This document shows positions 25,235-64,000 of a DNA stretch of 64,000 nucleotides, piece after piece. Positions within the stretch are counted from its first letter, which is position 1, and every line of letters begins with the position of its first letter. Under the pieces are notes generated by a model, which saw nothing but the letters and a program-made list of their open reading frames with translations, was not told the DNA's origin and made no database searches. Source of the DNA: an uncultured Anaerolineales bacterium (lineage in GTDB: Bacteria > Chloroflexota > Anaerolineae > UBA2200). The stretch is taken from NCBI GenBank assembly GCA_964478075.1, contig CAYZGO010000007.1, positions 22,975-86,974 of the forward strand. The letters are read 5' to 3'. Position numbers and translations under genes: made by a program.

Positions 25235-25262
25235 TTGACATTTGTGGTGAACTGGCTATAAT
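25235..25262 (+). promoter_or_regulatory. Consensus sigma70 promoter (TTGACA-N16-TATAAT) heading the glycan supercluster
   Basis: TTGACA at 25235-25240 and TATAAT at 25257-25262, about 80 nt upstream of the NusG-paralog ORF. Confidence 0.6.
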
Positions 25263-25340
25263 CGATCATACACGCGTTATCTATGCGGTTGCTGGGGACA
25301 CTTGGCCCAGTGCTAGCCACGCAGCTCTCACGGTGTACGG

Positions 25341-25970
25341 ATGATCCAGGCCATTTCAATCAGGAAAGCGGTGCTGCATGCTTGGGCGTGTCTCACTCAG
25401 CTCTTGGTCACGTCACACGTAGACTGGAGTGCGAAGGGACCAGGACGTCAGGAGAGGCGAGACGTGGAAGTCTGGTACGCACTGCATACCAAACCACGCA
25501 AAGAGTACCAGGTGCGTGATCTCCTGGAGAGCCGGGGAATGGAGACGTATCTGCCGGTGCTCAAGGTGACCTGTAAAGGACATCTGCGAAAGAGACGCGA
25601 AAAACCTTTCTTCGCTCGCTATCTCTTTGCGCGCATGGACCTCACCAGCGTGCCGCTCTCCTCCCTAAACTGGGCTCCCGGTGTGACCCGCGTGGTCAGT
25701 TTCGGTGGCCAGCCAGCCGTGGTGCAGGATGAGATACTGCAGTGGCTGAAAGACCGGCTGGCGCGGATAGACTCGAGAGATTACCACCAGGGGCTGCCCC
25801 TTCGGCGCGGTGACCGGCTGCGGGTGAAGACCGGGCCGCTGAAGGACATGGAGGTCATCTTCGAGCGGCCACTGTCTTCAGAAGATCGAGCGCAGGTGCT
25901 CATCGAAATGTTGGGTCGCCTCACCGCCTGCCAGATTGATCTACATTGCCTCGAACGGATGGAAAGATAG
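25341..25970 (+). CDS. NusG-paralog transcription antiterminator-like protein (UpxY/LoaP/TaA-type; NGN plus KOW domains). The start may be the GTG near 25453.
   Basis: NGN domain VEVWYALHTKPRKEYQVRDLLESRGMETYLPV...KPFFARYLFARMDL. KOW motif LRRGDRLRVKTGPLKDMEVIFER. It sits at the head of a co-directional polysaccharide cluster rather than in a secE-nusG-rplK context. Confidence 0.75.
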   Translation: MIQAISIRKAVLHAWACLTQLLVTSHVDWSAKGPGRQERRDVEVWYALHTKPRKEYQVRDLLESRGMETYLPVLKVTCKGHLRKRREKPFFARYLFARMDLTSVPLSSLNWAPGVTRVVSFGGQPAVVQDEILQWLKDRLARIDSRDYHQGLPLRRGDRLRVKTGPLKDMEVIFERPLSSEDRAQVLIEMLGRLTACQIDLHCLERMER

Positions 25971-26302
25971 CAGGCCGGGCTGCCACGCCCGGCTGTCCGG
26001 CGGCGTGCCCACTCCGCTTCACGCCGTGGATGCTGCGCGAGCAGCCGCCTCTGCTGACCTTTCGTAGAAGCTCGTGGGCAGTTGAAGGACGCTAACAGCC
26101 GCCCTCTCGCAGATGGGCGGACATACGGCGGGTTGCTTCGATTGGGTCTTTGTTGGGGGCAAACGTGACCCAATGGCGGAGCGTGCCTGACTATCGTTCT
26201 GGTGCCACCTGAGAGAAGGTACCGGAACGGCGGAGCCTGCCTGGGCAACGTGAAGCGTGAAACGTGATGAGGGGCGGGTAGCGAGTGGCGAGGCGGGAGG
26301 AA

Positions 26303-27067
26303 ATGACACAGCCGGTGGGCCGAATGCGGGCCCCCGGCGGCACGTGGGGCAACCTGCGGCTGTACATGGAACGGCAGGCCGCGAGCCCGGCGCGCTACCT
26401 CCTCGAGCAACTCCTGTTCGCCCTTGTGGGCTGGATCCCCACGGTGCTGGGCATCGGACTCAGGGCGCTTGTGTATCGGCTGATCCTCCACATGGACGGA
26501 CTGGCAGCTATCGAGAACGGCGTGCGGCTGCGCTTTTGCAGCCACATCCGTCTGGGCCGCGGCGTGTACATAGACAATGGCGTCTATCTACATGCCTGCC
26601 TGGGCGGCATCGAAATCGGTGAAGGCACCTTTGTGATGCATCACGCCGAGCTCCACGTGTACAATTTCCGCAGCATCCCCCATTCGCACATTCGAATAGG
26701 TCGCAACTGCTTGATCAGCGAGTACAACGTCCTGCGCGGGCAGGGCGGCATCACGATTGGCGACAATGTCTACACCGCCCCTCTGGTGCAGATGCTGGCC
26801 GTTGACCACGTTTATGACGACCCGACGCGGCCCATCATCGAACAGGGGATCACGGCGAACGGGATTGTGATTGAGGACAATGCCTGGATCGGGGCCGGGG
26901 CCATCATCCTCGACGGGGTGCGGGTAGGGAAAGGGGCCGTGGTAGGAGCGGGGGCGGTCGTGACTGAGGATGTGCCACCACACACGGTGGTGGCAGGAGT
27001 TCCAGCCGAGGTGGTGGAACAGATTGAGGGCGCCCCTACATCGGCACGAGGGACGGTGTACTTCTGA
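26303..27067 (+). CDS. Hexapeptide-repeat (left-handed beta-helix) acetyltransferase
   Basis: Repeated [LIV]GxxxxI hexapeptides ([43 protein letters not shown]). RBS GGGAGGAA before the ATG at 26303. Confidence 0.75.
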
Positions 27068-27140
27068 AGGCGAAGGATAGGCGGAGAACTATCGAGAACT
27101 GCTCAGGGAATTGCGCAACCCACGGGAGCTGTGAGCCAAC

Positions 27141-28349
27141 GTGAGCACGCTGTCAGTGGTGATCCCAGCCTACAATGAAGAAGACGGCATTGCCGCCATC
27201 ATAGAGCGCGTGCTGGCGGTGCGGGCGCGGCTGGCTGCGGTCGGTATGGACCTGGAACTGATCGTCGTGGACGATGGCTCCAGCGACCGCACAGTGGAGA
27301 TCGTGCGTCGCTACGACGGTGTCACCCTGGTGTGCCACGAGCGCAACGCTGGCTACGGCGCTGCCCTCAAGACCGGCTTCGCCTCGGCGCACGGCGAGTG
27401 GCTGGGCTTTCTCGATGCCGACGGCACTTATCCGCCGGAACATTTCCCTCAACTGTGCCAGACGGCATTGGAGCAGAGCGGCGATCTTGTGATCGGCTCG
27501 CGTCGCTCAGGTGCCCAGAGCGAGATGCCCCTGCTGCGGCGGATAGGCAATCTCTTGTGGTCTAATCTGGTCAGCCTGGTGGGCAACCATCGGGTCAGTG
27601 ACCCGGCCAGCGGGATGCGGGTCATCCGGCGGACCGCATTGCCCCTGCTCTATCCCCTGCCCGATGGGTTGAACTTTACGCCGGTGATGAGCACGCGGGC
27701 CATTCACGAAGGGCTGAAGATGGTCGAGGTGCCCATCCCCTATCACGAGCGGATGGGTCGTTCCAAGCTGAACGTGGTGAGTGACGGCACCCGCTTCCTG
27801 CAATCCATCGTCTGGACAGCCCTCACCTACAACCCAGTGCGAATCTTCGGCGGCCTGGGGGTGCTCGCGGTCGTGGCCGCGCTGCTGGTGGGGGCCACCA
27901 TGCTTCTCTTTGGAGTGCGCGGCGGCGCACAGCCCTGGCCGGCTTTCCGATTGTACGTGATCTTGGTGCTGGTGGTCGGTGGGGTCAACCTCTTCTCGGT
28001 GGGCACGCTGTTCAACTACCTGGTTTCCCTGTTCCACAAGAGGCCGGTCCGCCAGGGACTGCTGGGCAAACCGCTGTTCAAGACGCCTGTGGAGCGAAAC
28101 TTTATCTGGATGGGGCTGGCAGCGGGTGCCCTTGGCGGGTTGTTCGCCCTGGCAGCCATACGGGAGGGGCTTACGCTGCCCCCTTCGCCTGCCTACCCCT
28201 TCTACCTGTTGACCAGCGGCATGTTGCTCCTGACCGGCTTGCAGCTCATCCTCTCGTGGATCCTGGTGCTGGTTCTGGCTGAGCTGAGCGAGCGCGAAGT
28301 GCAGGTGCAGGACGACATGGAAGGTACGGTGAGGCAAGGCGAGGGATGA
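27141..28349 (+). CDS. GT2 polyprenyl-phosphate sugar synthase-like glycosyltransferase (GtrB/ArnC/DPM1-like) with C-terminal TM helices
   Basis: GTG start. VVIPAYNEEDGI...VVDDGSSDRT...DADGTYPPE (DXD), then four C-terminal TM segments. Confidence 0.75.
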   Translation: MSTLSVVIPAYNEEDGIAAIIERVLAVRARLAAVGMDLELIVVDDGSSDRTVEIVRRYDGVTLVCHERNAGYGAALKTGFASAHGEWLGFLDADGTYPPEHFPQLCQTALEQSGDLVIGSRRSGAQSEMPLLRRIGNLLWSNLVSLVGNHRVSDPASGMRVIRRTALPLLYPLPDGLNFTPVMSTRAIHEGLKMVEVPIPYHERMGRSKLNVVSDGTRFLQSIVWTALTYNPVRIFGGLGVLAVVAALLVGATMLLFGVRGGAQPWPAFRLYVILVLVVGGVNLFSVGTLFNYLVSLFHKRPVRQGLLGKPLFKTPVERNFIWMGLAAGALGGLFALAAIREGLTLPPSPAYPFYLLTSGMLLLTGLQLILSWILVLVLAELSEREVQVQDDMEGTVRQGEG

Positions 28350-29971
28350 CCACGCGGACAAATCTGGAGCCCCAGCCCGGGTTCTCCGAGGTAGATGAGA
28401 TGCCTGGGGAGCCAGCAGCGGAAGCACGGCCAGCGGGGGCGGTGGATGTGCTGCTGGTCAATCCCCCGGCACCCGATGGCGGCATCTGGATCCGCAGTCA
28501 GCACCGCGTCGGCCGGCGCAGCCGGGAAGGAATGATCTGGCCACAGGTGTCGCTGGCGCAGATGGCGGCGCTGTTAGCTCCCGACTACTCCGTCGAGATC
28601 GTGGACGCCATCGCCGAGCGGACGAGCTGGCCGCAGTTCGAGGCGCTTCTGCGACAGAAGCACCCTCGCTATTACGTGACCCAGGTGACGGCGCCAACGC
28701 TGCAGAACGACATGTACGGCACCTTCCTGGCTCGCTCCCTGGGCGCTCGTACCATCGCCTTTGGCACGCACGTCACCCCCATGACGCGGGAGACAATGGG
28801 GCCTTATCCCAGCCTGGACTTTGTGCTGCGCGGTGAGCCAGAGTTGACACTGCTGGAGCTGCTGGGCACTCTCGAGGGGCAAGGCCTGGGGCGCTGGAGC
28901 AAACTGTTTGAGGGCGCGGATGCGGACTGGTCAGAGATTCCGCAGGACGGTCCAGGATCAGGAAGCCCGCGTCTGGAGCCCATCAAGGGGCTCGCCTGGA
29001 GGCGGGATGGCGAGATCGTCATCAACCAAGACCGGCCCTTGATCAAGAATCTGGACCATCTACCCCTGCCCCGCCATGACCTGCTGCCGCTGGATCGCTA
29101 TCGCGTCCCCATGATCAAGGGGCCGTACAGCTTTGTCGTCACGAGCCGCGGCTGTCCCGCTGGGTGCCGTTTCTGCATCAAGCACGTCAGCTACGGCCGC
29201 ACGGTGCGGGTCCGGTCGCCAGAGAACGTGATCGCCGAGCTGAGATTGCTGCGCGACCTGGGGCTGCGCAACGTCCACATGTATGCCGACCTGTTCACCG
29301 TGAATCGGGATCAGGTTATGGGCATTTGCGAGCTGATGCTGGAGGAGGAACTCGATTTCCGCTGGATGTGCAACAGCCGGGTGGACTTTGTGGACGAGGA
29401 GATGCTGCGCCTGATGGCGCGAGCCGGCTGCTGGATGATCGCGTGGGGCATCGAGTCGGCCAACGAAGGGATTCTGCGACGGGTGCGCAAGGGCTACCGG
29501 CCCGGGCGGGCAGCGCAGGCGCTAAGCTGGGCCAGGGCGGCGGGCATCAAGAATTGGGGCTATTTTATCATCGGTCTGCCGGGCGAGACTGACGAGACGG
29601 CGCAGCAGACCATCGAGCTGGCCAAGAGGCTGCCTCTCGACGTGGCCCTGTTCCACATCGCTGCGCCCTATCCAGGCACGCCCTTTTACCAGGAGGCGGT
29701 GGAGAAGGGCTGGTTCCGGGAGGGGACGCGCTGGGAAGATGTGGATATGGACCGCTCCACCGTGCTGGATTACCCAGAGATGCCGGGGGAGCGCATCGAG
29801 TACTGGGCACGGCGGGCGTTTCGGGAGTGGGCCTTCCGGCCGGGGCCGCTCTGGACGTACCTGACCAGCATGGCCAGTCCCGCGACGTTCCGCGCAGCAG
29901 TAAGGATCGGACTGGAGAGCCTGGGGTGGATAAGGGAGACGGAGGAACGGAGGCGGACAGACAGCAAGTGA
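28346..29971 (+). CDS. B12-binding-domain radical SAM protein (class B)
   Basis: The N-terminal cobalamin-binding domain starts at VDVLLVNPPAP. The radical SAM core has CxxxCxxC (SRGCPAGCRFC). 541 aa. ATGA overlap with the upstream gene. Confidence 0.8.
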   Translation: MTTRTNLEPQPGFSEVDEMPGEPAAEARPAGAVDVLLVNPPAPDGGIWIRSQHRVGRRSREGMIWPQVSLAQMAALLAPDYSVEIVDAIAERTSWPQFEALLRQKHPRYYVTQVTAPTLQNDMYGTFLARSLGARTIAFGTHVTPMTRETMGPYPSLDFVLRGEPELTLLELLGTLEGQGLGRWSKLFEGADADWSEIPQDGPGSGSPRLEPIKGLAWRRDGEIVINQDRPLIKNLDHLPLPRHDLLPLDRYRVPMIKGPYSFVVTSRGCPAGCRFCIKHVSYGRTVRVRSPENVIAELRLLRDLGLRNVHMYADLFTVNRDQVMGICELMLEEELDFRWMCNSRVDFVDEEMLRLMARAGCWMIAWGIESANEGILRRVRKGYRPGRAAQALSWARAAGIKNWGYFIIGLPGETDETAQQTIELAKRLPLDVALFHIAAPYPGTPFYQEAVEKGWFREGTRWEDVDMDRSTVLDYPEMPGERIEYWARRAFREWAFRPGPLWTYLTSMASPATFRAAVRIGLESLGWIRETEERRRTDSK

Positions 29972-30684
29972 CTGAGCCGCAACCATCACCGTGGCCGGAG
30001 TATCGCTTCCGTTTCCCCCGCTACAATCGTTGGCTGGCGAACCGCCTGCGGCCGTTCATGGGACAGCGGGTTCTGGAGGTGCAGTGCGGCCTGGGGCACA
30101 TGACGGGGCTGCTGCTGGATCGGGAGTTCCTGGTGGCCGTGGATTCTGTCGCTGAGCACGTGGCCGCTGTGCAGGCCAGGTACGGAGAGCGAGAGGATTT
30201 CGGCGCCGCAGTGCAGGACATGTGCAGCCCGGACGCGCTCAGCTTACGACAATATGGCATTGACACGATCCTGTGTGCCAATCTCCTGGAACATCTGGAC
30301 GACGACCGGGCTCTGGATACAATGGTGGCTATCCTGCCACCTGGAGGAAGGCTGATCACTTTGGTTGCTGCTTTTGAGAGCCTGTTCAATGCGCTGGACC
30401 GGGGTGCAGGGCATCTACGGCGCTATGACAAGGGAGCGTTCGTCGCCCAGCTTGCCAGGCACGAGCTGAGCGTGAACGAGGCTTTCTACGTCAACAGCCT
30501 GGGTCTGCTGGGGTGGTGGGTACGGGGCAGCCTGCTGAGACGGGAGATGCCCTCCGTGAGCCAGTTGCGTCTCTTCGACCGCCTGGTGCCGCTCTGGGGG
30601 GCGGTGGAGAGGCGGATTCCTCCGCCGTTTGGGTTATCCCTGGTCTGTGTGGCAGACAAGCGGCGCGCAGGCATTGGAGGGTAG
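29968..30684 (+). CDS. Class I SAM-dependent methyltransferase
   Basis: GTG start overlapping the upstream TGA. Motif I VLEVQCGLGHMTGLL, motif post-II ILPPGGRLI. Confidence 0.7.
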   Translation: MTEPQPSPWPEYRFRFPRYNRWLANRLRPFMGQRVLEVQCGLGHMTGLLLDREFLVAVDSVAEHVAAVQARYGEREDFGAAVQDMCSPDALSLRQYGIDTILCANLLEHLDDDRALDTMVAILPPGGRLITLVAAFESLFNALDRGAGHLRRYDKGAFVAQLARHELSVNEAFYVNSLGLLGWWVRGSLLRREMPSVSQLRLFDRLVPLWGAVERRIPPPFGLSLVCVADKRRAGIGG

Positions 30685-30687
30685 CGG

Positions 30688-31584
30688 ATGCGCATTCTGG
30701 TGACTGGAGCAACCGGATTCATCGGCAATCACCTGCTGCCAGCCCTGATCCGGGCTGGGCACGAGGTCGTGTGTCTGGTACGGCGCACCAGTGACCTCTC
30801 CGGACTGCAGGGCGTGGACGTCGAGCGGGTGCAAGGGGACATCACCGACAAGGACGCGCTGCTGGCCGCCCTGGACGGTGCAAACGCGGTGGTGCACCTG
30901 GCCGGGGTCAACGTGCCCGAGCTGGAGGCCTGCCGTCAGGTCAATGTAGAGGGCGTGCGGATGCTTATCAAGGCCTGCCGTGAGCGGGGCGTGCGGCGCG
31001 TGGTGGCCAACAGCACTGTCTCGGCCACGCGTGAGCACCTGGGAGCCTACGGGCTGACCAAGAGGCAAGGGGAGGACCTGTGGCAGGCCTCGGGGCTGGA
31101 TGTGACCATCTTGCGCTTGTCCCTGGTTTACGGCCCGGGGGCCAAAGGGATCTTCGCCAAGCTTCTCGGTTACGTGAAGACGCTTCCCGTGGTGCCGCTC
31201 ATCGGGCCTGGGACCTTTGAGGTGCAGCCAGTGTACGTGGGCGACGTGGTGGATGCCATCCTGAGGTGCCTCGAAAGCGGCAAGACAATCGGCAGGACCT
31301 ACGTCCTGGCCGGCCGGGAGGCCACCACGATGAACCAACTCATTGACGCGATGCTGGCCGAGCTGGGGAAACGGAAGCCGAAGCTGCACGTGCCAGTGCC
31401 TGTGGCTACGCTGATGGCCCGGGCGATGGCGCTGGTGCTGCCCAATCCCCCTGTGACGGTGGACAATATCCTGGGCATGAATCAGCCGACAGACTATGAC
31501 ATCTCGGCGGCGGAGCGGGATTTTGGGTTTGAGCCCATGCCGCTGCGAGAAGGGTTGCGAAGGACGGTGGGGGGTGGGCGATAA
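30688..31584 (+). CDS. NAD-dependent epimerase/dehydratase family protein (SDR)
   Basis: MRILVTGATGFIGNHL Rossmann motif and the YGLTK catalytic YxxxK. Confidence 0.8.
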   Translation: MRILVTGATGFIGNHLLPALIRAGHEVVCLVRRTSDLSGLQGVDVERVQGDITDKDALLAALDGANAVVHLAGVNVPELEACRQVNVEGVRMLIKACRERGVRRVVANSTVSATREHLGAYGLTKRQGEDLWQASGLDVTILRLSLVYGPGAKGIFAKLLGYVKTLPVVPLIGPGTFEVQPVYVGDVVDAILRCLESGKTIGRTYVLAGREATTMNQLIDAMLAELGKRKPKLHVPVPVATLMARAMALVLPNPPVTVDNILGMNQPTDYDISAAERDFGFEPMPLREGLRRTVGGGR

Positions 31585-31604
31585 TTGATAATCGATTATC
31601 GATT

Positions 31605-32693
31605 ATGACTTACCAGTCATCACTCATGAATCCACACCACTCACCCTTCAAACACCAACACATTGCCATCATCGGCCTCGGGCGGATGGGCATCGCTCAC
31701 GCAGCACTCCTGAACACCATCGCCAGGGCAAAGCTAGTGGGCTTTTGCGACCTGAGCCGGCGGTTGGGGCGGCAGGCGCGCGGGATGGGCTTTCGTGACG
31801 TGCCTTTCTACACCGATGTGGAGCGCTTGCTGGATGAGACTCAGCCGGATGGCGTTTTCATCTGCACGCCACCCCATACGCACCTGCCCATCGCCCGGCA
31901 GTGCGTGCCGCGGGTGGAGGGGGTCTTTGTGGAGAAGCCGCTGGCGCAGTCACTGGCGGCGGCCCAGGAGATGGTGGCGCTGGTGGAAGGACGGGGGCTG
32001 GTCCATGCCGTTGGCTATCACTATGCCTACGTTCCCATCTTCCAGCGGGCCGGGGAGCTGTTAGGCCAGGGGGTCATTGGCGGGCCAACGGAGGTACGTG
32101 CCTCCATGTTCCTCACCCAGGTGATGGGGCCCAAACGAGCGAGCTGGTGGTACGACCCGGCCAAAGCCGGGGGCGGGGTGGTGATCAGCATCACCTCACA
32201 CCTGCTGGCTTTGCTGCAGGAGTACTTTGGCGCGGTGGCCTGGGCGGAGGCACAAACCCGGCGGCTGCACTCCAAACTGGTCGAGGACGAAGCGACCATC
32301 CGGCTGGGCTTTGCCAGTGACCTGCAAGCAGTGGTGGAAACCTCGTGGAGCGTGCCCGGCTACGAGCGTTCGGCGATAGAGATTGGCATAGAGGGAGAGA
32401 ACGGCACGTTGACGGTGACCGATGGGGAGATTCGCCTCTCGCTGCAGCAGGCTACGAGCGGCTTCCCTGCAGGGGAAAGCCATGTCCCCGTCTCCGACGT
32501 ACCCGACCCGGCCGAGTTTGAGCTGGGTGGGCCGGGTTTCTGGGCCGAGGATGCGGACTTGATAGCGTGCCTGGGCGATGCAGCGGAGCGGGCCCCGCGC
32601 GTGACTTGGCACCAGGCATTGGCGACACAGGCCGTGCTGGACGCGGTGTACGGGTCGGCTGAGAGAGTCGAGAAGGTGGGGCTGGATGGCTGA
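31605..32693 (+). CDS. Gfo/Idh/MocA family oxidoreductase (sugar-nucleotide dehydrogenase-like, WbpB-like)
   Basis: N-terminal Rossmann HIAIIGLGRMG and the EKP motif FVEKPLA. 362 aa. Confidence 0.75.
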   Translation: MTYQSSLMNPHHSPFKHQHIAIIGLGRMGIAHAALLNTIARAKLVGFCDLSRRLGRQARGMGFRDVPFYTDVERLLDETQPDGVFICTPPHTHLPIARQCVPRVEGVFVEKPLAQSLAAAQEMVALVEGRGLVHAVGYHYAYVPIFQRAGELLGQGVIGGPTEVRASMFLTQVMGPKRASWWYDPAKAGGGVVISITSHLLALLQEYFGAVAWAEAQTRRLHSKLVEDEATIRLGFASDLQAVVETSWSVPGYERSAIEIGIEGENGTLTVTDGEIRLSLQQATSGFPAGESHVPVSDVPDPAEFELGGPGFWAEDADLIACLGDAAERAPRVTWHQALATQAVLDAVYGSAERVEKVGLDG

Positions 32694-57549: not shown

Positions 57550-57649
57550 GAGCCGGAGCTGTTCCCCTCTCCCGAGCTTGGGAGAGGGGCCAGGGGTGAG
57601 GGCCACAGCGGCAAACTCCCCCCAGGTATGCAGCAACCCAAAAACCATC

Positions 57650-58021
57650 ATGCGTGTGCTATTCATCGTCCCTTACGTCCCGAACCTGATACGGGTGCGG
57701 CCCTACAACCTGATCCGGCACCTGGCGGCCCGCGGGCACGAGGTCACGGTTCTGACCTTGTGGTCCAGCGAAGAGGAGCGCGCCGACGGCGAGGCGTTGA
57801 AGCAGCACTGCCACAGCGTCGTCGCCCTGCCGCTGCCCCGCTGGCGCTCCCTGTGGAACTGCCGGCCGGCTTTGCGGACACACGTGGGGCTTCGGGCGAT
57901 CTATTGCCACGCACCAGAGCTTGCCGCCCTGCTCGGGCTCTTTCGCCCACGTACTTCTCCGTGCGCTTCGAGCCCCTTGACTCAGAGAGAGCAAAGGACT
58001 GAGTACCATGGTGATTGCTAA
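57650..58021 (+). pseudogene. Truncated 5' duplicate of the GT4 gene at 59291
   Basis: The first 214 nt (57650-57863) are about 93% identical to 59291-59504 (MRVLFIVPYVPNLIRVRPYNLIRHLAARGHEVTVLTLWSSEEERAD...). The sequence then diverges and runs into the next gene. Confidence 0.65.
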
Positions 58022-59294
58022 GCTTATCTCCTCTATCGCATGTCTAGCAGCCCGCAGACAAGTAATAGTTCTGTTTTGCGCAGCAGCTGTGATCAGGTTG
58101 GCCTATGTAGCTACGCTCCCAAGCAGTCTGCGCTTTGATGAGGCCTACTACCAGGATATGGCAGATCACTTGTTGGCCGGAGACGGTTTTACCTTTTCAT
58201 TCAGTGCGTGGCACACAGGTCTCCCCTGTCGACCCACCTCAGTTCAGGAACCACTGTTTCCAATGCTCCTAGCCGGGGTGTACCATGTATTTGGAATCCA
58301 CAATTATCTTGCGGCTCGCGTCGTTCAATGCATCATCAGCTCGTTTACAGTGATATGTGTCTATGCCATCAGTCTCTTGGCCTTTGATCGACCCAAAGCG
58401 CTACTAGCAGGCTCGTTCGCGGCAATTTACCCGCCTTTGGTATTCTTCAACGGCTACCTTATGACTGAGACGCTCTATATCGCGTTTCTGGCGGGCATGA
58501 TCCTATTTGCGGCTCTGACTGCCAACTCTCAATCAAGGTTGTCTGCTTGCGCCACGGGAGTGCTGTTCGGCCTGGCTTGCTTGACGCGGGGTCTTATCCA
58601 AGCCTTCTTGCCCGGGTTGTTGGTCTGGCTGTGGCTTGCGCTACGTTGCCAGTGGCGTGTTCGGATAGGTACATGCTTACTTGTCATGATAGGGGGCGTC
58701 TTGGCCATCGCCCCTTGGACAATCAGGAATTATGCGGTGCACAAGGCCTTCATTCCCGTCACAACCAAGGGGGGCTGGGTATTGTATTTCTATACCTATC
58801 CCGCTCCTAATCTGAATTTCAATGATAGATGGGACGAGATCCGTATCCCTAGTATGCCCTCTTCTTACACAGAGATACAGCGCAACCAGGAATTCACTCG
58901 CTTGGCAATGAAAAACATCAGAAACAATCCGAGACTGATGGTGCGCTTTGCTGTGGCCAAGCTGGCTGACTTCTGGAATCCGCTCCTGAAGGGTTGGCAT
59001 CCCGTCTTGTCCCTTCTAAACATATGTACGTTCGGCATCGCCACGGCCTTTGCCGCCTCTCGTCTGATACCTGCCTTGCGCCTGCGTCAAGTAGCGCCGA
59101 TTCCACTGCTTCTGTGGTTGATAATTGGGTACTATGCAGCGATGGCCACGCTGTTTACGGGAGGTGGAAAGGCACGTCTCCCTGTTGAGCCCTTCTTGAT
59201 CGTACTTGCAAGTGATGGGGTAGTCGCTTTGCTGCGGAAGAGTGGTTGGCGTTGCAACAGCTTGTCTCGGCATGCCGGGGTGGGCTCGCAATGA
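58008..59294 (+). CDS. GT-C fold membrane glycosyltransferase (GT39/ArnT-like)
   Basis: 428 aa and multi-TM. The first loop LRFDEAYYQDMADHL carries the DE motif of the family. Low GC. Confidence 0.65.
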   Translation: MVIAKLISSIACLAARRQVIVLFCAAAVIRLAYVATLPSSLRFDEAYYQDMADHLLAGDGFTFSFSAWHTGLPCRPTSVQEPLFPMLLAGVYHVFGIHNYLAARVVQCIISSFTVICVYAISLLAFDRPKALLAGSFAAIYPPLVFFNGYLMTETLYIAFLAGMILFAALTANSQSRLSACATGVLFGLACLTRGLIQAFLPGLLVWLWLALRCQWRVRIGTCLLVMIGGVLAIAPWTIRNYAVHKAFIPVTTKGGWVLYFYTYPAPNLNFNDRWDEIRIPSMPSSYTEIQRNQEFTRLAMKNIRNNPRLMVRFAVAKLADFWNPLLKGWHPVLSLLNICTFGIATAFAASRLIPALRLRQVAPIPLLLWLIIGYYAAMATLFTGGGKARLPVEPFLIVLASDGVVALLRKSGWRCNSLSRHAGVGSQ

Positions 59295-60577
59295 GGATAC
59301 TATTCGTCGTCCCTTACGTCCCTAACCTGATACGGGTGCGGCCCTACAACCTGATCCGGCACCTGGCGGCGCGCGGCCACGAGGTCACGGTTCTGACCTT
59401 GTGGTCCAGCGAAGAGGAGCGCGCGGATGCCGAGGCGTTGAAGCAGCACTGCCACAGCGTCGTCGCCTTGCCGCTGCCCCGCTGGCGCTCCCTGTGGAAC
59501 TGCCTGCGAGCACTGCCGACGCCTGTACCACTGCAGGCGGTCTACTGTTGGCAGCCAGCCCTGGCCGAGGAGATCGCTCGTCGTGTATCGCCCGTGCGGC
59601 CGACGCACAGGCAAACCGCAGATTGCATTTCCCCGTCAGGCACGCGTGATAAGCGATACGACGTCGTCCACGTGGAGCACCTGCGCGGCGCCCGCTACGG
59701 CCTTGCAGCCCGCAATGCGCAATCGGCCATCCCCGTCGTCTGGGACTCTGTGGACTGCATCAGCCTCCTGTTCGAGCAAACTCTGCAGAGAGGCCCCAGC
59801 CTGGGCAGCCGCTTGAAAGCCTGGCTGGATTTGGAGAGGACGAGGAGATATGAGGGCTGGCTCGTGAGGCAGTTTGACCGGGTGCTGGTCACCTCACAGG
59901 CAGACCGTCGCGCCCTGCAAGACCTGGCTTTGTGTTCCCTGCAGCCTGCAGCCTTGAGCCTTGAATCTGGGACCATCACCGTCCTCGCCAACGGCGTTGA
60001 CCTCGACCACTTCAAGCCGCTGGACGTCCCCCGGGACCCTGCCACTCTCATTCTGACCGGCAAGATGAGCTATCACGCCAACGTGGCTGCGGCCCTCTAC
60101 CTTGTGCGCGAGATCATGCCTCTGATATGGGCCAGACAGCCGGATGTCAAGCTCCACATCGTCGGCAAGGATCCAGCTAAGGAGATACGGGCAGTGGGCA
60201 GCGATCCACGGGTAACGGTAACGGGCTATGTCCCCGATATGCGGCCCTATCTGGCCCAGGCCACCGTCGCCGTCTGCCCGGTCCTTTACAGCGCGGGCAT
60301 CCAGAACAAGGTGCTGGAGGCGATGGCCATGGGCACACCGGTGGTTGCTACGCCGCAATCCTGTGCCGCCCTGGAGGTTGTCCATGGCGAGAACGTCCTC
60401 ATCGCGGGAGAGCCGGAGGCGTTTGCCCAGCGTGTGCTGGAGCTGCTGGATGATGAGGGGGTAAGGGAGACAATGGGGAGGAATGGCAGGAGGTACGTGG
60501 AGGAGCACCACGACTGGCGAGACGTGACACAGAGGCTAGAGGAGGTTTATCAAGAAGTGATCGGGAGGAGGCAGTGA
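59291..60577 (+). CDS. GT4 (group 1) glycosyltransferase
   Basis: GT-B C-terminal motifs ILTGKMSYHANVAA and VLEAMAMGTPVVAT. ATGA overlap with the upstream gene. Confidence 0.8.
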   Translation: MRILFVVPYVPNLIRVRPYNLIRHLAARGHEVTVLTLWSSEEERADAEALKQHCHSVVALPLPRWRSLWNCLRALPTPVPLQAVYCWQPALAEEIARRVSPVRPTHRQTADCISPSGTRDKRYDVVHVEHLRGARYGLAARNAQSAIPVVWDSVDCISLLFEQTLQRGPSLGSRLKAWLDLERTRRYEGWLVRQFDRVLVTSQADRRALQDLALCSLQPAALSLESGTITVLANGVDLDHFKPLDVPRDPATLILTGKMSYHANVAAALYLVREIMPLIWARQPDVKLHIVGKDPAKEIRAVGSDPRVTVTGYVPDMRPYLAQATVAVCPVLYSAGIQNKVLEAMAMGTPVVATPQSCAALEVVHGENVLIAGEPEAFAQRVLELLDDEGVRETMGRNGRRYVEEHHDWRDVTQRLEEVYQEVIGRRQ

Positions 60578-62046
60578 ACGCCGTAGCTGAATCATCCCCA
60601 CCGAAGACCAGGCCGAGCATATCCCGCAGAGCCCCAAGCCGCCTCCTTGTCGGCACCCTGCTCCTCGGCGACTCTGCAGCGATTGGAGCTGCCTTTGCTG
60701 TGGCTTACGCCGTGCGCTTCAAGACCAGTTTGCCGGTCTTCCAAGCGGTTGTGCCGTCCCTGCAGTTCTATTTCAGTTTGATTCTCATCTTGATCCCTTT
60801 CTGGCTTCTCATCTTCGCCGTATCCGGCCTGTACGACGAGCGCAACCTGTTGGGCGGAACTGGTGAATACGCCAGAGCCTTCAATGCCTGCACTGCGGCA
60901 ATGATGCTCATCATCACGGCCGGTTTCCTGGAGCCGACGTTTGTCATCGCCAGGGGCTGGCTGCTCCTCTCCTGGGGTCTCACATTTCTCTTCGTGGTCA
61001 CGACTCGTTTCTTCCTGCGGCGCGCATTCTACCGCCTGCGGAAGCGAGGTTACTTCCTCTATCGCACCCTGATCATCGGAGCCAATGAGGAGGGGAAGGC
61101 CCTGGCGGAGCAACTGCAGCACTGGCCCGCTTCTGGCCTGCAGTTGGTCGGCTTCGTGGATGACGCCCTGCGGCCAGGGACCGAGGTGCTGAACGGGCTG
61201 CGGGTGCTGGGGCCTACGGAGGAGCTGCAGGCGCTGGTTCAAGAGCACGGGGTGCGCGAGTTGGTCGTCGCTACCACGGCCCTGCCTCGCCGCACGCTGC
61301 TGGGCATATTCCAGCAGTATGGTACCTCGCCCCTCGTCAACATCCGCCTCTCCTCCGGCCTGTTTGAGATCATTACCACCGGCGTGCAGGTCAAGGAGAT
61401 AGCCAACGTTCCCCTTGTGAGCGTCAACCGGCTGCGCCTGACGGGGATCGAGGTGGCGCTGAAAACGATGTTGAACTATGCTATTGTCCTGCCAGGTCTG
61501 ATCGCCATCTCTCCCCTCCTATTGCTCCTCGCCGTGGCGGTCAAGTTGGATTCGCGCGGTCCGGTCCTCCACCGGCGTCGGGTGATGGGGATGGGTGGAC
61601 GGGAGTTTGACGCCTTCAAGTTCCGTACCATGCACATGGACGCCCATGCGATTCTGGAGGCCTACCCGGAGTTGAAGGCAGAGTTGCAGAGCAACTACAA
61701 GCTGAAGGACGATCCCCGGGTGACCCGGGTGGGGCGCTTTCTGCGTCGCTGGAGTCTGGACGAGCTGCCTCAGCTTTTCAACGTGCTCAAGCGGGACATG
61801 AACCTGGTAGGGCCGCGGATGATCTCGCCGCCGGAGGTCAAGGAATACGGCAAGTGGGGGATGAACCTGCTGACGCTGCGGCCGGGGCTCACCGGACTGT
61901 GGCAGGTATCGGGCCGCTCCGACGTGACTTATGAGGAGCGGGTGCGGCTTGACATGCAGTACATTCGCAATTATAGTATCTGGCTGGATCTGCACATTCT
62001 GATTCAGACGATCCCTGCGGTGCTGCACGGTAGGGGGGCACGCTAA
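60574..62046 (+). CDS. Polyprenyl-phosphate hexose-1-phosphate transferase (WbaP/CpsE-like initiating sugar transferase)
   Basis: 490 aa. N-terminal TM helices, a Rossmann-like linker (LIIGANEEG) and the C-terminal bacterial sugar transferase domain (KFRTMHMDA...RVTRVGRFLRRWSLDELPQLFNVLKRDMNLVGPR). Confidence 0.85.
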   Translation: MNAVAESSPPKTRPSISRRAPSRLLVGTLLLGDSAAIGAAFAVAYAVRFKTSLPVFQAVVPSLQFYFSLILILIPFWLLIFAVSGLYDERNLLGGTGEYARAFNACTAAMMLIITAGFLEPTFVIARGWLLLSWGLTFLFVVTTRFFLRRAFYRLRKRGYFLYRTLIIGANEEGKALAEQLQHWPASGLQLVGFVDDALRPGTEVLNGLRVLGPTEELQALVQEHGVRELVVATTALPRRTLLGIFQQYGTSPLVNIRLSSGLFEIITTGVQVKEIANVPLVSVNRLRLTGIEVALKTMLNYAIVLPGLIAISPLLLLLAVAVKLDSRGPVLHRRRVMGMGGREFDAFKFRTMHMDAHAILEAYPELKAELQSNYKLKDDPRVTRVGRFLRRWSLDELPQLFNVLKRDMNLVGPRMISPPEVKEYGKWGMNLLTLRPGLTGLWQVSGRSDVTYEERVRLDMQYIRNYSIWLDLHILIQTIPAVLHGRGAR

Positions 62047-62106
62047 TATCTCGCTGATTGGCCGCGTCGCTCTGTCGCCCATTCGTACAAGAAGGAGAAC
62101 GACTCA

Positions 62107-64000
62107 TGGAATTACGCCAATACTTCGCCGTGGTCTGGAAGTGGCTGTGGCTGATCCTGTTGGGGACAGCGGTGGCGACCAGCCTGAGCTACTACACCAG
62201 CCGCAGTATGCCCCGCATCTACCAGGCCTCTACCACGGTGATGGTGGGGCAGAGCCTGGGCAACACCAACCCCAGCACCGCTGACCTGTGGACCAGCGAG
62301 CAACTGGCGGAGACCTACGCGGAGATGGTGAAGCGGCAGCCCATCCTGCAGGCCACGGCGGATGCCCTGGGCCTCGGTATACCCTACCAATGGCTAAAAG
62401 GACAGGTGACCGTCAACCTGGTCTCAGGCACTCAACTGATGGAGATTCACGTACGGGATACCGACCCGACGCGCGCTGCCGTCATCGCTGACGAGATCGC
62501 GCACCAGCTTGTGCTGCAAAGTCCCACCGGGCCAGAGAAGGCGCAGGAGCAGTACCGGCAGTTTGCCCAGGCGCAGATTGAGGATCTCCAGAGCAGAATC
62601 CAGGAGACGCAGGCACAGATGATCGAGCTCCAGGACGCCATGGACGCCGAGACCAGCGCCACGGGGCTGGCCAACAAGCAGGCACAGATGGCGACCCTGC
62701 AGAACCAACTCAACACCTATCAAGCCAATCTGGCGCCGCTGCTCAACTTCTTCCGGGGCAGCGCCACCAACTACGTTGACGTCATTGAACCGGCCATAGT
62801 GCCCACCAGCCCCATCGGCCCCAGGACAATGCAGAACGTCCTCCTGGCAGCCACCGTAGGGCTGATCCTGGCTGTGGGCGCGGCCTTCCTCCTGGAGTAC
62901 TTGGACGACACCATCAAGACGCCGGACGACATCCAGCAGGCTCTGGGCCTCTTTACCATGGGGGCCATCACCCGCATCAGCGGCGACAGGATCGAGGACA
63001 AACTCGTCACGACTGCCCACCCCAGGTCGCCCATCGCCGAGGCTTACCGCGCCCTGCGCACCAACCTGCAGTTCTTCGCAGTGGACAAGCCATTGAAGAC
63101 TCTGTTGGTCACGAGTGCCAATCCCATTGAAGGCAAGAGCCTCACTGCCGCTAACCTGGGGGTGGTCATGGCCCAGGCGGGCATGTCAGTCATCCTCGTG
63201 GACTCTGATCTGCGGCGACCTGTCCTGCACAGGGTCTTCCAACTCACCAAAGAAGAGGGGCTGACCAACGCTCTTCTGCAAGGCATCTCTGTCTCCGATG
63301 GCTACCTTCAGGCAACCGAGGTAGAGAATCTGCGTGTGATGACCAGTGGCCCCGTGCCCCCCAACCCTTCGGAGCTCTTGGCGTCAGAGCGCATGAGCGG
63401 ACTGATCGAGCACCTCAAAAAACAGGCGGACGTGCTGCTTTTCGACAGCCCGCCCTGTCTGGCTGTGACCGACGCCGCCGTGCTGTCCAGCCAGGTAGAC
63501 GGAGTGCTGCTGGTGGTTGACGCCGGGGTCTGTCGGCGGGAGTTGGCCGTACGGGCGGTGGATGGGCTGAGCAAGATCGGGGGCAACATCCTGGGTGCGG
63601 TATTGAACAAGCTCTCCCCTCGTGGGGCAGGCTCCTATTACTATTACTACTACTACTCGGAGGAAGGTGACGAGACGAAGCGCCGCAAGAGCAAGGGCTT
63701 CCGCAGTCGCCTGGCGTCGTCGCCGCTGCTGCGGTCAGTGATCAGCTTGTTCCGTCGAGGCAAGAAGCCGTCTGCGGCCGGCATAGCTTCTTCAAGTCGC
63801 GCTGCCCCGCGTGCACCCAGGCCAGAAGCAGGCAAGAGCAGACAAGAGGTTGCCCTCGCCGGCCAGCCGGCCGGTGTAGAGTCTACTTACGCCCAGGGCA
63901 TGGCCCACTACTTCAGCCGCGAGTGGAAGCAGGCACGTGAGTGTCTCCTGCAGGCAAAGGAAATGAACCCGACGCTCCCGGGCATTGACGATCTCCTGGC
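62107..64000 (+). CDS. Wzc-like polysaccharide co-polymerase / BY-tyrosine kinase, 3'-partial (runs off the window)
   Basis: Wzz-like N-terminal TM plus periplasmic coiled-coil. Walker A SANPIEGKSLTAANLG, Walker A' VLLFDSPP, and a C-terminal tyrosine cluster GSYYYYYYYSEEG followed by a further extension of about 110 aa. RBS AAGGAG present. Confidence 0.85.

Follow-up and report, generated by a model that had tools for sequence, protein, structure and literature searches.

We identified a NusG paralog at the head of a glycan cluster of at least 38 kb and, in the 314-nt gap between it and the next gene, a conserved element that occurs twice in tandem and in which a hairpin directly precedes a core resembling the ops site of RfaH. 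The paralog is specialised and distinct from the housekeeping NusG, and the element exists and is strand-biased, positioned and covarying. We read the window (the whole stretch of 64,000 nucleotides analysed) as a Chloroflexota (Anaerolineae-like) version of RfaH/UpxY-type operon-specific elongation control and give this reading a probability of about 60%.

The cluster starts with two features:

25235-25262, + strand: sigma-70-type promoter TTGACA-N16-TATAAT (12/12 in scan)
25464-25970, + strand: specialised NusG paralog (NusG-SP) of 168 aa, NGN plus beta-barrel KOW, RfaH-like (Pfam, NCBIfam, homologs, PDB, AF2)

The promoter, which an earlier note on this DNA had described as near-consensus, in fact matches all 12 consensus positions on the plus strand (TTGACA at 25235-25240, a 16-nt spacer and TATAAT at 25257-25262; promoter scan and direct reading). 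It is the sole 12/12 match in the 40 kb scanned, the chance expectation being ~0.02 per 64 kb, and its predicted transcription start at ~25268-25270 would give a leader of ~195 nt before the paralog gene. The same note had recognised the first gene as an NGN+KOW NusG paralog starting at 25341. Pfam, NCBIfam and AlphaFold2 support the identity, but the start is the GTG at 25464, nine nt downstream of an AGGAG ribosome-binding site (25450-25454), because the 96 homologs are mostly 161-185 aa long and one of 99% identity has exactly 168 aa; positions 25341-25463 are an extension of the ORF ahead of the true start.

The NusG NGN domain was found with an E value of 7.7e-18 (Pfam), and the protein aligns full-length to the NCBIfam models of RfaH, UpxY, NusG and LoaP. 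In the model comparison that had been proposed as a check, RfaH scored best with 93 bits, followed by UpxY (75), NusG (49) and LoaP (46), all below the respective cut-offs of 144.5, 100, 135.7 and 125 bits. Among solved structures, E. coli RfaH is the best match (E 6e-20, NusG structures reaching ~1e-12; PDB comparison), and the AlphaFold2 model shows an NGN domain and a five-strand beta-barrel KOW with a mean pLDDT of 80.9. Residue K10 is almost invariant in the homolog alignment of the family; in the RfaH lineage it is a DNA-binding residue of early origin, and NusG has a phenylalanine there (PMC7593976). The counterparts of RfaH R73 and E48 are not conserved, and recognition must therefore differ in detail from that of RfaH. 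The 5' neighbours of the gene are a divergent UvrD-like helicase, tRNA-Pro, tRNA-Gly, DUF4013 and RecQ, and annotation of the neighbourhood within the window found no secE, rplK or rplA, in agreement with the claim that this is not the housekeeping nusG. A displaced housekeeping copy would share the NGN+KOW architecture, but the TIGR00922 (NusG) score of 48.6 bits against a cut-off of 135.7, the far better match to the RfaH structure than to any NusG structure, the missing neighbours and the consistent association of the family with glycan genes leave that idea a negligible chance.

At least 557 species genomes carry a relative of the paralog. We examined 80 loci, nearly all of them from Chloroflexota, and the relatives with names come almost exclusively from MAGs of Anaerolineae or other Chloroflexota. 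In 40 of 64 related loci, glycan genes could be recognised in the same direction within 10 kb downstream of the paralog; they lie downstream but on the opposite strand in only 1 of 64, and within 3 kb upstream in only 8 of 65. The usual place of the gene is the 5' end of glycan clusters, and the same arrangement is repeated in metagenome loci L085 and L086. The model scores, the homolog taxonomy and the 40 loci bear out the earlier proposal of a specialised NusG paralog that is linked to a long glycan cluster of a Chloroflexota organism and lies outside the characterised RfaH, UpxY and LoaP lineages. Control of long operons of the RfaH/UpxY type probably exists across this phylum, for which it had not been described. 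The specialised-paralog reading gains independent support from the ops-like cis element, which the earlier note did not contain:

26141-26189, + strand: ops-like element copy 1, hairpin 26141-26174, core GGCGGAGCGTG at 26175-26185, then CCTG (PWM, covariance model, folds)
26196-26243, + strand: ops-like element copy 2, hairpin 26196-26228 with 11 outer pairs, core GGCGGAGCCTG at 26229-26239, then CCTG (PWM, covariance model, folds)

Both copies have the layout of a covarying hairpin followed directly by GGCGGAGC-N-TG, the cores beginning at 26175 and 26229, and they are the only two matches in a PWM scan of the whole window. Copy 1 scored 26.9 bits with the PWM and 20.1 bits (E 0.14) with covariance model R1, which was built from six other loci with the window left out; the corresponding values for copy 2 were 30.1 and 39.8 bits (E 3.5e-6). 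The hairpin of copy 1 is present in the MFE and centroid folds, and that of copy 2 was recovered repeatedly. The predicted pauses are at T 26184 and at T 26238, the latter 65 nt ahead of the next start codon.

Across related loci, 33 of the 88 regions that follow the paralog contain GGCGGAGC, compared with 7 of the 87 that precede it, and in 1.39 Mb the PWM gave 62 matches on the paralog strand versus 3 on the opposite strand. All 45 element instances have a pyrimidine at position 10, and 40 of them have G at position 11. RNA polymerase pauses at the consensus G-10/Y-1/G+1, and the element agrees with it when G1 is placed at -10. The 36 nt upstream of the core had a mean folding z-score of -1.68 compared with 0.01 for a control segment (p 6e-10). 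In the hairpin alignment 86.9% of the cells were paired versus 66.6% in shuffles, compensatory changes were seen in 11 of 11 pairs, and the covariation score was 0.375 versus 0.154 in shuffles and 0.04-0.07 in slid controls, in an alignment fitted to the model structure and thus biased towards it. The hairpin is strand-specific because of its G-U pairs.

The element is found near about half of the related paralog genes, the other half or so having no detectable copy within 20 kb, and the closest relatives carry tandem pairs of sites. In seven loci (L021, L025, L030, L035, L050, L055, L064) it lies upstream of the paralog, in eight (L043, L049, L052, L054, L056, L060, L063, L066) ~5 kb away from it and ahead of a conserved triad of genes, and in L078 it heads a divergent glycan operon on the other strand. 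Since the same invariant core occurs at sites without an adjacent paralog gene, the paralog would probably, like RfaH, control a small regulon in trans and not its own operon alone.

Copies on some metagenome contigs without a paralog within several kb, together with one hairpin-plus-core ahead of phage terminase-like genes on a human gut contig, could also be taken to mean that the element is unrelated to the paralog and is instead an alternative-sigma promoter, a riboswitch-like or protein-binding leader RNA, or an EAR-like RNA-only antiterminator. We consider this very improbable. A metagenome scan seeded with the element, in which contigs were short and many matches were chance ones within coding sequence, nevertheless returned the paralog in 32 of 120 loci, mostly starting 580-750 nt upstream of the core. 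GGAAC ahead of some cores could mimic an ECF -35 box, but it is not conserved and the eight invariant bases would sit in the promoter spacer; the spacing does not fit the GG-N10-GC of sigma-54; no Rfam family matched at E up to 10; and the core is nearly identical to known loading sites of NusG paralogs.

The hairpin also bears on the mode of recruitment. In a LoaP-like mode the nascent RNA, hairpin plus single-stranded GGCGGAGC, would recruit the paralog in place of the non-template DNA, and the paralog would serve chiefly to carry RNA polymerase through intrinsic terminators. In favour of this mode, support for the hairpin is strong and it is strand-specific, LoaP itself has been proposed to be recruited by an RNA hairpin (PMC11685472), and the core is hardly stable when folded as DNA, although its 0 to -1.4 kcal/mol as an 11-nt single strand is uninformative and E. 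coli ops itself reaches only -0.9. However, it is the single-stranded core that is invariant and not the hairpin, and this core is similar to those of ops and opsX, which are read as DNA; a pause that leaves the core within the transcription bubble agrees with the Y10-G11 step, which is conserved and at constant distance; the LoaP model gave the weakest of the four family scores; and consensus scans of the window showed no terminator after the element. We therefore regard RNA-based recruitment as unlikely.

Under the RfaH/UpxY-type reading, the strong sigma-70 promoter would drive the paralog and transcription would go on into the 314-nt spacer, where the nascent RNA of each of the two tandem recruitment modules would fold as a hairpin. 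RNA polymerase would pause 10-15 nt after the hairpin, at the pyrimidine-G step of GGCGGAGC-N-T|G, presenting GCGGAGC on the exposed non-template strand. The NGN domain may then recognise the paused complex, displace housekeeping NusG from the polymerase and remain bound, with less pausing and less premature termination (Rho-type or intrinsic) across a long and compositionally mosaic cluster as the expected outcome. Such RfaH/UpxY-like loading on paused polymerase, with processivity through the cluster as its result, is to us the most likely mechanism; pausing, non-template DNA recognition, antitermination and a single transcript are its inferred parts.

The closest parallels are with RfaH, which provides the best-scoring model, the best structure and the shared K10. 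The cis core GGCGGAGCNTG equals E. coli ops GGCGGTAGnnTG minus one T, and the non-template hairpin of E. coli ops is GCGGTAGC (PMC11685472). JUMPstart consists of a stem-loop and ops (PMC2864571), and a stem-loop likewise lies directly upstream of the window core; the targets of both proteins are long surface-polysaccharide clusters, and the single invariant core recurs at a number of sites, including ones distant from the gene, which suggests a trans-acting regulon. Unlike RfaH, the paralog stays below the family cut-off, lacks conserved R73 and E48 counterparts, has a KOW predicted as a beta-barrel and not the alpha-hairpin of RfaH, usually has a strong promoter of its own and a place next to its target, has tandem site pairs in its closest relatives and belongs to another phylum. 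With UpxY, the second-best model though also below cut-off, it shares its place at the head of a polysaccharide locus. In the opsX site of Bacteroides, YGCGNAGCR with its core GCGNAGC comes after a pause RNA hairpin, and GCGGAGC in the window fits GCG-N-AGC (PMC11685472). In contrast to UpxY/opsX, the window sites are 3' of the paralog gene and not in its 5' leader, no UpxZ-like gene lies between the paralog and the next gene in the window, and the core is invariant across genomes and not locus-specific. LoaP of Bacillus and other Firmicutes is similarly a specialised paralog whose gene adjoins a biosynthetic operon of great length, and a hairpin in the leader is implicated in its recruitment. 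Its model gives the weakest family score here (46 bits against the cut-off of 125), its targets are polyketide and not glycan genes, and the window differs further in its conserved single-stranded core, which resembles ops, and in showing no leader terminator.

The concept itself is not a first, as bioinformatic surveys had noted uncharacterised NusG paralogs adjoining cell-envelope genes in many bacteria (PMC7593976, PMC7819879). Among the NusG-SP clusters of Wang et al. 2020 (PMC7593976), RfaH-like proteins similarly lie beside glycosyltransferase, epimerase and exopolysaccharide genes. In the available parts of that survey's text and supplements, ~95% of the RfaH-model matches are from Proteobacteria, Chloroflexi are unmentioned, and no cis element is described for the uncharacterised NusG-SP groups. 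New here are the two tandem conserved hairpin-plus-core elements in the gap after the paralog.

The earlier count of more than 30 co-directional genes agrees with our 33 plus-strand ORFs from 25464 to 64000, the paralog and 32 more, and Pfam matched none of the ten longest ORFs on the minus strand of this region. The predicted Wzx, two Wzy-like proteins, WbaP-like enzyme and Wzc BY-kinase are all present (Pfam, NCBIfam, motifs):

26303-29971, + strand: conserved triad (Pfam, NCBIfam)
26303-27067, + strand: left-handed beta-helix acetyltransferase of the triad (Pfam, NCBIfam)
27141-28349, + strand: GT2 of the triad, resembling polyprenyl-phosphate sugar synthases (Pfam, NCBIfam)
28346-29971, + strand: radical SAM enzyme of the triad; best NCBIfam matches B12-binding radical SAM families, HpnJ-like
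29827-34963, + strand: GC-rich module with methyltransferase, NAD-dependent epimerase, GFO/IDH/MocA oxidoreductase, 261-aa protein and BNR-repeat protein (Pfam)
35006-39848, + strand: lower-GC module with methyltransferase, 548-aa multi-pass membrane protein, Wzx and CDP-alcohol phosphatidyltransferase (Pfam, NCBIfam)
37256-38905, + strand: Wzx flippase (Pfam; NCBIfam WZX_like)
40092-49815, + strand: glycosyltransferase block of GT4, methyltransferase, GT4, Wzy, GT2, GT2, methyltransferase, GT4 and methyltransferase (Pfam)
43352-44692, + strand: Wzy polymerase (Pfam)
49955-55063, + strand: 103-aa ORF, PMT_2/GT-C, DesI-like aminotransferase, NeuD/PglD-family acetyltransferase and ArnC/PgfS-like GT2 (Pfam, NCBIfam)
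50263-51969, + strand: PMT_2/GT-C glycosyltransferase (Pfam)
55189-60577, + strand: Wzy_C+TPR, truncated GT4, second PMT_2/GT-C and full GT4 (Pfam)
55189-57549, + strand: Wzy_C+TPR protein (Pfam)
57509-58021, + strand: truncated GT4 fragment (Pfam)
58008-59294, + strand: second PMT_2/GT-C enzyme (Pfam)
59246-60577, + strand: full GT4 (Pfam)
60574-62046, + strand: polyprenyl-phosphate hexose-1-phosphate transferase, WbaP/WcaJ-type priming enzyme (Pfam, NCBIfam)
62106-64000, + strand: Wzc-like chain-length regulator fused to BY-kinase, with Wzz, GNVR, P-loop, Tyr7 cluster and TPR tail (Pfam, NCBIfam)

The triad recurs in many related loci with 52-72% identity, often straight after the ops-like element. 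The GC-rich module (GC 0.59-0.67) includes the 261-aa protein, which had no family match in Pfam, and the BNR-repeat protein, which has a C-terminal membrane anchor; the lower-GC module has a GC of 0.48-0.54. Between 49955 and 55063 the NCBIfam scores were 559 bits for DesI, 213 for the NeuD family (above cut-off) and 202 for PgfS. The priming enzyme was identified by Bac_transf (E 2.4e-58) and TIGR03025 (397 bits, cut-off 296), and the Wzc-like protein, inside whose gene the window ends, by TIGR01007 (198 bits, above cut-off), a Walker A motif and the Tyr7 cluster at 63636-63656. The product would be a Wzx/Wzy-dependent polymer with side-branch modification by polyprenyl-phosphate-sugar and GT-C enzymes.

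The plus-strand orientation noted earlier holds for all 33 ORFs, but the genes are not mostly overlapping: overlaps make up 15 of the 32 junctions, roughly half, the others being gaps of 3-73 nt (11 cases) or 109-314 nt (6 cases). The six long gaps, the alternation of GC in blocks of ~0.63-0.67 and 0.48-0.56 (modules overall 0.48-0.67), an 11/12 promoter-like TTGACA-17-TATAGT at 61949-61977, ~130 nt before the Wzc start codon, and the tightest linkage of the element across genomes to the triad, not to any given distal gene, would all suit a mosaic of independently transcribed, co-oriented modules, in which control by the paralog and its sites would reach no further than the first, GC-rich one (triad and neighbours). 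In consensus scans, moreover, terminator-like sites were not enriched within the cluster, an enrichment that would have created a need for antitermination. On the other hand, the scans found no promoter-like site of at least 9/12 in the internal gaps and no terminator-like site in the plus-strand gaps; the overlapping and short junctions form a chain uninterrupted by minus-strand genes; and the pathway needs both ends expressed together because the priming enzyme and Wzc sit at the far end. Several operons thus seem to us a possible but rather doubtful arrangement. Within the distal part of the cluster, a 257-nt direct repeat (57650-57906 and 59291-59547, 89% identical) lies on both sides of the second PMT_2 gene.

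The gene that heads the cluster (25464–25970, plus strand) is predicted to encode a specialized, nonhousekeeping NusG (NusG-SP) of the NusG/Spt5 superfamily, with an NGN domain (Pfam, E 7.7e-18) followed by a KOW domain. The comparison with NusG, LoaP, and UpxY models proposed in the earlier note was run with the curated NCBIfam profiles, and all scores were below the cut-offs: the RfaH model TIGR01955 scored highest (93.2 bits, cut-off 144.5), and the others were NF006534 for RfaH (71.5, cut-off 124), NF033644 for UpxY (75.4, cut-off 100), TIGR00922 for NusG (48.6, cut-off 135.7), and NF033641 for LoaP (46.3, cut-off 125). The alignments to TIGR01955, NF033644, TIGR00922, and NF033641 extended from end to end. 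By these models, the paralog is placed outside RfaH, UpxY, and LoaP and in a family of its own. The low TIGR00922 score bears out the earlier reading that this is not the housekeeping nusG, as does the context: the neighbors are a UvrD-like helicase gene and tRNAs, and the locus lies outside a secE-nusG-rplK neighborhood. Searched with a profile of the family, the best solved relative was Escherichia coli RfaH (E 6e-20), with NusG proteins at about 1e-12. An AlphaFold2 model based on 26 family members gave an NGN fold and a KOW domain forming a five-strand β-barrel (residues 118–165, pLDDT 80.9), not the α-hairpin of autoinhibited RfaH; as a single prediction, this is compatible with fold switching. 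In RfaH, E48, I93, and F130 serve the autoinhibited α-helical KOW that refolds, while K10 and R73 contact DNA, K10 (phenylalanine in NusG) having been gained early in the lineage and R73 later (PMC7593976). Within the paralog family, K10 is nearly invariant and the F130 counterpart is conserved; the counterparts of E48 and R73 are lysine and proline, respectively. Judging by every sequence feature that could be tested, the paralog looks as though it acts like RfaH, UpxY, and LoaP.

The earlier note had rightly seen an NGN and KOW protein in the first gene but had started it at 25341. We place the start at the GTG at 25464, because homologs are 161–185 aa long, one at 99% identity being exactly 168 aa, and because an AGGAG lies at the proper distance upstream; the predicted leader is then about 195 nt. 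The promoter, previously described as near consensus, is a 12/12 match to the sigma-70 type (TTGACA at 25235–25240, 16-nt spacer, TATAAT at 25257–25262), located in the intergenic region past the divergent UvrD-like helicase gene. It was the sole 12/12 match in a scan of 40 kb, with a chance expectation of about 0.02 perfect matches per 64 kb. An alignment of nine close relatives revealed no conserved signal in the 195-nt leader, only −10-like boxes. In three related loci, a small ORF (72–88 aa) whose nucleotide and protein sequences are both conserved directly precedes the paralog (L083, 3207–3452; L085, 9611–9877; L086, 9626–9844); the window is without it.

The priming phosphoglycosyltransferase, Wzx flippase, Wzy polymerase, and Wzz/Wzc co-polymerase were all matched by family models within the one locus, in agreement with the Wzx/Wzy-dependent glycan, WbaP-like priming enzyme, and Wzc proposed earlier. 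From its gene content, the cluster is predicted to encode a Wzx/Wzy-dependent pathway combined with extracytoplasmic decoration via polyprenyl-phosphate-sugar and GT-C enzymes.

Genes of the glycan cluster (position, strand, product, and supporting models)
26303–29971, plus strand: hexapeptide acetyltransferase, GT2 resembling polyprenyl-phosphate sugar synthases (AglJ/ArnC/DPM-like), and radical SAM enzyme, together the "triad" (Pfam, NCBIfam)
Cluster, plus strand: five class-I methyltransferases and one Methyltransf_24 protein (Pfam)
Cluster, plus strand: epimerase, GFO oxidoreductase, and BNR-repeat protein (Pfam)
Cluster, plus strand: Wzx (Polysacc_synt_3/WZX_like) and CDP-alcohol phosphatidyltransferase
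Cluster, plus strand: four GT4 and one truncated GT4 copy
Cluster, plus strand: three GT2 besides that of the triad, one ArnC/PgfS-like
Cluster, plus strand: two Wzy_C proteins, one with a TPR tail
Cluster, plus strand: two PMT_2-type GT-C enzymes and an additional 548-aa multipass membrane protein
Cluster, plus strand: DesI-like aminotransferase and NeuD/PglD-family acetyltransferase
Cluster, plus strand: WbaP/WcaJ-type priming transferase (Bac_transf; TIGR03025, 397 bits, above cut-off)
To the window end, where the gene is cut, plus strand: Wzc-like co-polymerase/BY-kinase (Wzz, GNVR, and TIGR01007; Walker A motif, Tyr7 cluster)

The best NCBIfam matches of the triad radical SAM enzyme are B12-binding families (HpnJ-like), and its pairing with a GT2 is reminiscent of HpnI/HpnJ acting on a lipid-linked sugar. 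Past its Tyr7 cluster, the Wzc-like protein has over 110 further residues (63636–64000), running into a basic low-complexity stretch and a TPR repeat. TPR-tailed extensions past the Tyr cluster are unusual among BY-kinases; the Wzc homolog in L082, a related locus, has a TPR tail as in the window.

The 314-nt spacer between the paralog and the acetyltransferase gene carries an ops-like element, a hairpin followed by a short core, that is absent from the earlier note. Among k-mers counted in the flanks of 88 paralog genes, GGCGGAGC was found in 33 downstream vs. 7 upstream regions. The spacer contains two copies with cores 54 nt apart, GGCGGAGCGTGCCTG at 26175 and GGCGGAGCCTGCCTG at 26229, and similar tandem pairs are present in L012 and in the closest relatives (L081, L083, L085, and L086); L030 and L035 carry such pairs ahead of the gene. 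A position weight matrix gave 62 matches on the strand of the paralog vs. 3 on the other (1.39 Mb), and its only two matches in the 64-kb window were the spacer copies. The element lies on the sense strand, behind the promoter or the paralog and ahead of the first biosynthetic gene. Eight core bases served to find the 45 instances, and we report conservation for positions beyond those eight: position 10 is a pyrimidine in 45/45 (T in 41), position 11 is G in 40/45, positions 12–13 are mostly CC, and position −3 is A in 37/45.

Upstream of every instance is a hairpin of approximately 7–13 pairs that ends 0–5 nt ahead of G1. The 36 nt preceding the core had a mean folding z-score of −1.68 relative to shuffled sequences, compared with 0.01 for a control segment (P = 6e-10). 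A covariance model was seeded from six loci in one register, without the window, because a gapless MAFFT alignment of the 45 instances failed to capture the hairpin. The model gave 45 plus-strand matches, and the held-out window copies scored 39.8 bits (copy 2, E 3.5e-6) and 20.1 bits (copy 1, E 0.14). In the resulting alignment, which, as a caveat, was itself fitted to this model, 86.9% of the cells were paired vs. 66.6% in shuffles, double changes were seen in 11/11 hairpin pairs, and the covariation score was 0.375 in comparison with 0.154 in shuffles and 0.04–0.07 in slid controls. G–U pairs are frequent, and the hairpin is thus specific to the sense strand. A gathering-threshold Rfam scan of the whole window returned only two tRNAs, with no match at 24800–27200, and a permissive scan of that interval (E up to 10) gave only four weak chance matches; neither JUMPstart (RF01707) nor Chloroflexi-1 matched the window element. 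With both scans empty for it, the element is outside the curated Rfam families. Readings as a sigma-54 or ECF promoter were rejected for wrong spacing and because the invariant bases would land in a promoter spacer. Folded as single-stranded DNA, the core, like ops itself, is too short to be informative.

Published loading sites share this anatomy. E. coli RfaH reads a nontemplate hairpin GCGGTAGC within GGCGGTAGnnTG at a pause, and the approximately 40-bp sites of Bacteroides UpxY (opsX) consist of a NusA-stimulated pause RNA hairpin and a YGCGNAGCR core (PMC11685472); JUMPstart similarly joins a stem-loop to ops (PMC2864571). The Chloroflexota core, GCGGAGC, equals ops minus one T and fits the GCG-N-AGC of opsX. 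While the 12-nt GGCGGTAGnnTG defines the leaders targeted by RfaH, the one-base-shorter GGCGGAGCNTG stands here instead, and the exact E. coli core GGCGGTAG was found in none of the 175 flanking regions.

The elemental pause consensus is G−10/Y−1/G+1. With T10 as the RNA 3′ end, G1 takes position −10 and G11 position +1, and the core fits this consensus; the hairpin then ends 10–15 nt behind the predicted pause, a distance comparable with that in hairpin-stabilized pauses. On this fit, RNA polymerase would pause at the core, stabilized by the upstream RNA hairpin, and the paralog would load at the paused complex in the manner of RfaH and UpxY. Given the shared two-part anatomy, the ops- and opsX-like core, the fit to the pause consensus, and the hairpin distance, an RfaH/UpxY-like loading site is the best explanation of the element, with a probability of roughly 0.6. 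Its main mechanistic rival, which we regard as rather unlikely, is recognition of the element as RNA, in the manner of LoaP; the paralog differs from LoaP in having glycan genes as neighbors, not a polyketide or antibiotic cluster. The setting resembles that of UpxY in that the paralog is the first gene of its cluster, but upxZ does not come next: there are 314 noncoding nucleotides and then the acetyltransferase gene. As the paralog has its own strong promoter and the sites lie after its gene, the factor is predicted to be made independently of them.

A protein search for the paralog gave 96 homolog clusters at 49–99% identity; the few with a taxon name were from Anaerolineae or Chloroflexota, and many carry the automatic JGI name "transcriptional antiterminator RfaH." At least 557 loci in one-genome-per-species GTDB contigs encode a relative, and the 80 retained represent Anaerolineae, Chloroflexia (Chloroploca, Viridilinea), Ardenticatenia, Caldilineae, Thermoflexales, and Ktedonobacterales. 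The cluster proteins of the window served as the BLASTP reference for labeling neighboring ORFs, which makes the glycan counts lower bounds: a same-strand glycan gene was found within 10 kb downstream in at least 40/64 loci and within 3 kb in at least 34/64, one within 3 kb upstream in only 8/65, and an opposite-strand one downstream in only 1/64. Two metagenome contigs annotated with Pfam (L085 and L086) are laid out likewise, with GT2, Wzy, Wzx, GT4, and other genes downstream of the paralog. The position at the cluster head is not universal: in L082 (7800–10501), a 74–75% identical relative starts 17 nt past a Wzc+TPR gene, at the 3′ end of another, co-directional glycan cluster. A degenerate core, GGGGGAGGGTGCC, lies about 1 kb beyond that paralog. 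The triad is retained at 52–72% identity in many related Chloroflexota loci, exceeding the conservation of the paralog itself (the window, L021, L030, L035, L043, L049, L052, L054, L056, L060, L066, L135, L164, L173, L177, L195, and L198), and very often has the element directly upstream.

Of 84 genome loci, 38 have the element near the paralog (−600 to +800 nt), mostly 60–320 nt past the stop codon. The arrangements vary: the element can occupy the leader that precedes the paralog, an arrangement also seen in UpxY loci (L021, L025, L030, L035, L050, L055, L064, and L065); it can be about 5 kb on, directly before the triad, with WbaP and other genes after the paralog (L043, L049, L052, L054, L056, L060, L063, and L066); it can precede the triad several kilobases upstream of the paralog (L036 and L047); or it can head a divergent Wzc/Wzx/GT4 operon on the opposite strand (L078). 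Downstream, it is followed variously by genes for epimerases, Wzc, PglD/DegT, or Wzy, by the triad, or by the paralog itself. In the approximately 46 related loci without the element, k-mer enrichment, a relaxed pattern, and a second covariance model recovered no variant core.

A metagenome scan seeded with GGAANGGCGGAGCNTGCCYG alone returned 120 loci, 32 of which carry the paralog, mostly starting 580–750 nt upstream of the core, and in many the triad is just downstream of the core. Many other matches are chance ones inside long ORFs, and the scan therefore gives no clean estimate of the regulon size; the 76 loci without labeled neighbors had a mean hairpin z-score of −0.4. Some noncoding copies have the typical ATGTCGGAA arm and no paralog within 1–7 kb (L108, L122, L156, L175, L178, and L196). 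The occurrence of the invariant core also at unlinked sites argues for the paralog acting in trans. Two human gut metagenome contigs (L092 and L115, oriented positions 1989 and 4275) show a strong hairpin (z about −4) followed by GGAATGGCGGAGCATGCCTG a short distance upstream of phage-like genes, and of the ORFs that come next, the second resembles a terminase large subunit by eye; the stretches of 6.8 and 11.5 kb contain no NusG-SP ORF. These copies are either due to chance or a similar loading site of a phage late operon in another phylum.

Uncharacterized NusG paralogs are known to adjoin envelope-biogenesis genes in many bacteria, and approximately 95% of RfaH-model hits are in Proteobacteria; Chloroflexi are unmentioned in the texts of these surveys or the supplements examined (PMC7593976, PMC7819879). 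A full-text literature search combining NusG-paralog and antitermination terms with Chloroflexi or Chloroflexota had no match, and papers naming both RfaH and Chloroflexi were off this topic. The association of the paralog with a glycan cluster is a further instance of the published pattern, and even as an annotation-level example only, it would still belong, with good support, to a known class. The element combining a hairpin with GGCGGAGC appears undescribed, as do its tandem layout and its conservation across many Chloroflexota lineages. More tentatively, and with odds that we put below even, the Chloroflexota may have a phylum-wide, RfaH-like trans-acting regulon whose loading site combines a pause hairpin with an invariant GGCGGAGC-N-TG, the GCG-N(1–2)-AGC core being common to ops and opsX and the code shared or convergent across three phyla. 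If so, recognition of small nontemplate-strand hairpins by NusG paralogs would be ancient or reached repeatedly, contradicting the published view that DNA recognition arose late and is peculiar to the RfaH lineage, and the triad would be the most conserved target of the regulon.

To our knowledge, operon-specific NusG paralogs are the main known route to expressing very long, foreign-looking surface-polysaccharide and antibiotic clusters, and we know of mechanistic work on three lineages only. The window and its relatives give a candidate protein–site pair for a fourth, deeply branching phylum, and as the protein is small and the 40- to 50-nt site combines a clear pause signature with an invariant 8-nt core, the evolution of ops recognition becomes directly testable in vitro or with reporters. 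For annotators, the element offers a cis marker of glycan operon starts in Chloroflexota, a phylum abundant in wastewater sludge, sediments, and soils, environments in which its sheaths and exopolymers are important.

From the paralog to the window end, 33 plus-strand ORFs follow one another. The ten longest minus-strand ORFs within the cluster had no Pfam match, leaving real minus-strand genes unsupported and the earlier claim of a single direction in place. The stop and start codons, said to be mostly overlapping, do overlap at 15 of the 32 junctions; the remainder are gaps, 11 of 3–73 nt and 6 of 109–314 nt. Consensus scans of the internal gaps gave no promoter-like or terminator-like site. 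A TTGACA-17-TATAGT (11/12) lies at 61949–61977, within the 3′ end of the WbaP-like gene and about 130 nt ahead of the Wzc start codon, and might serve the kinase gene as an internal promoter. The GC content forms a mosaic, with 0.60–0.67 at approximately 26–34, 40–44, and 55–64 kb (except for a PMT_2 gene at 58008–59294, 0.53) and 0.48–0.56 at 35–40 and 44.6–55 kb (except for a GT4 gene at 47640–48839, 0.60), which suggests that the cluster was put together from modules of differing origin. Given the 109- to 314-nt gaps, the GC mosaic, and the 11/12 site, transcription may also start within the 38 kb. A 257-nt direct repeat (57650–57906 and 59291–59547, 89% identical) flanks the lower-GC PMT_2/GT-C gene, and the N terminus of a GT4 is thus encoded twice, in a fragment (57509–58021) and in a full gene (59246–60577); the arrangement resembles the outcome of an insertion into the GT4 gene, or of a duplication around it, with a 170-aa truncated copy left behind. 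A tRNA-Pro(TGG) and a tRNA-Gly(TCC) are located at 22448–22637, about 2.6 kb upstream of the cluster promoter and separated from it by the divergent UvrD-like helicase gene, and may be relevant to the acquisition of the mosaic cluster.
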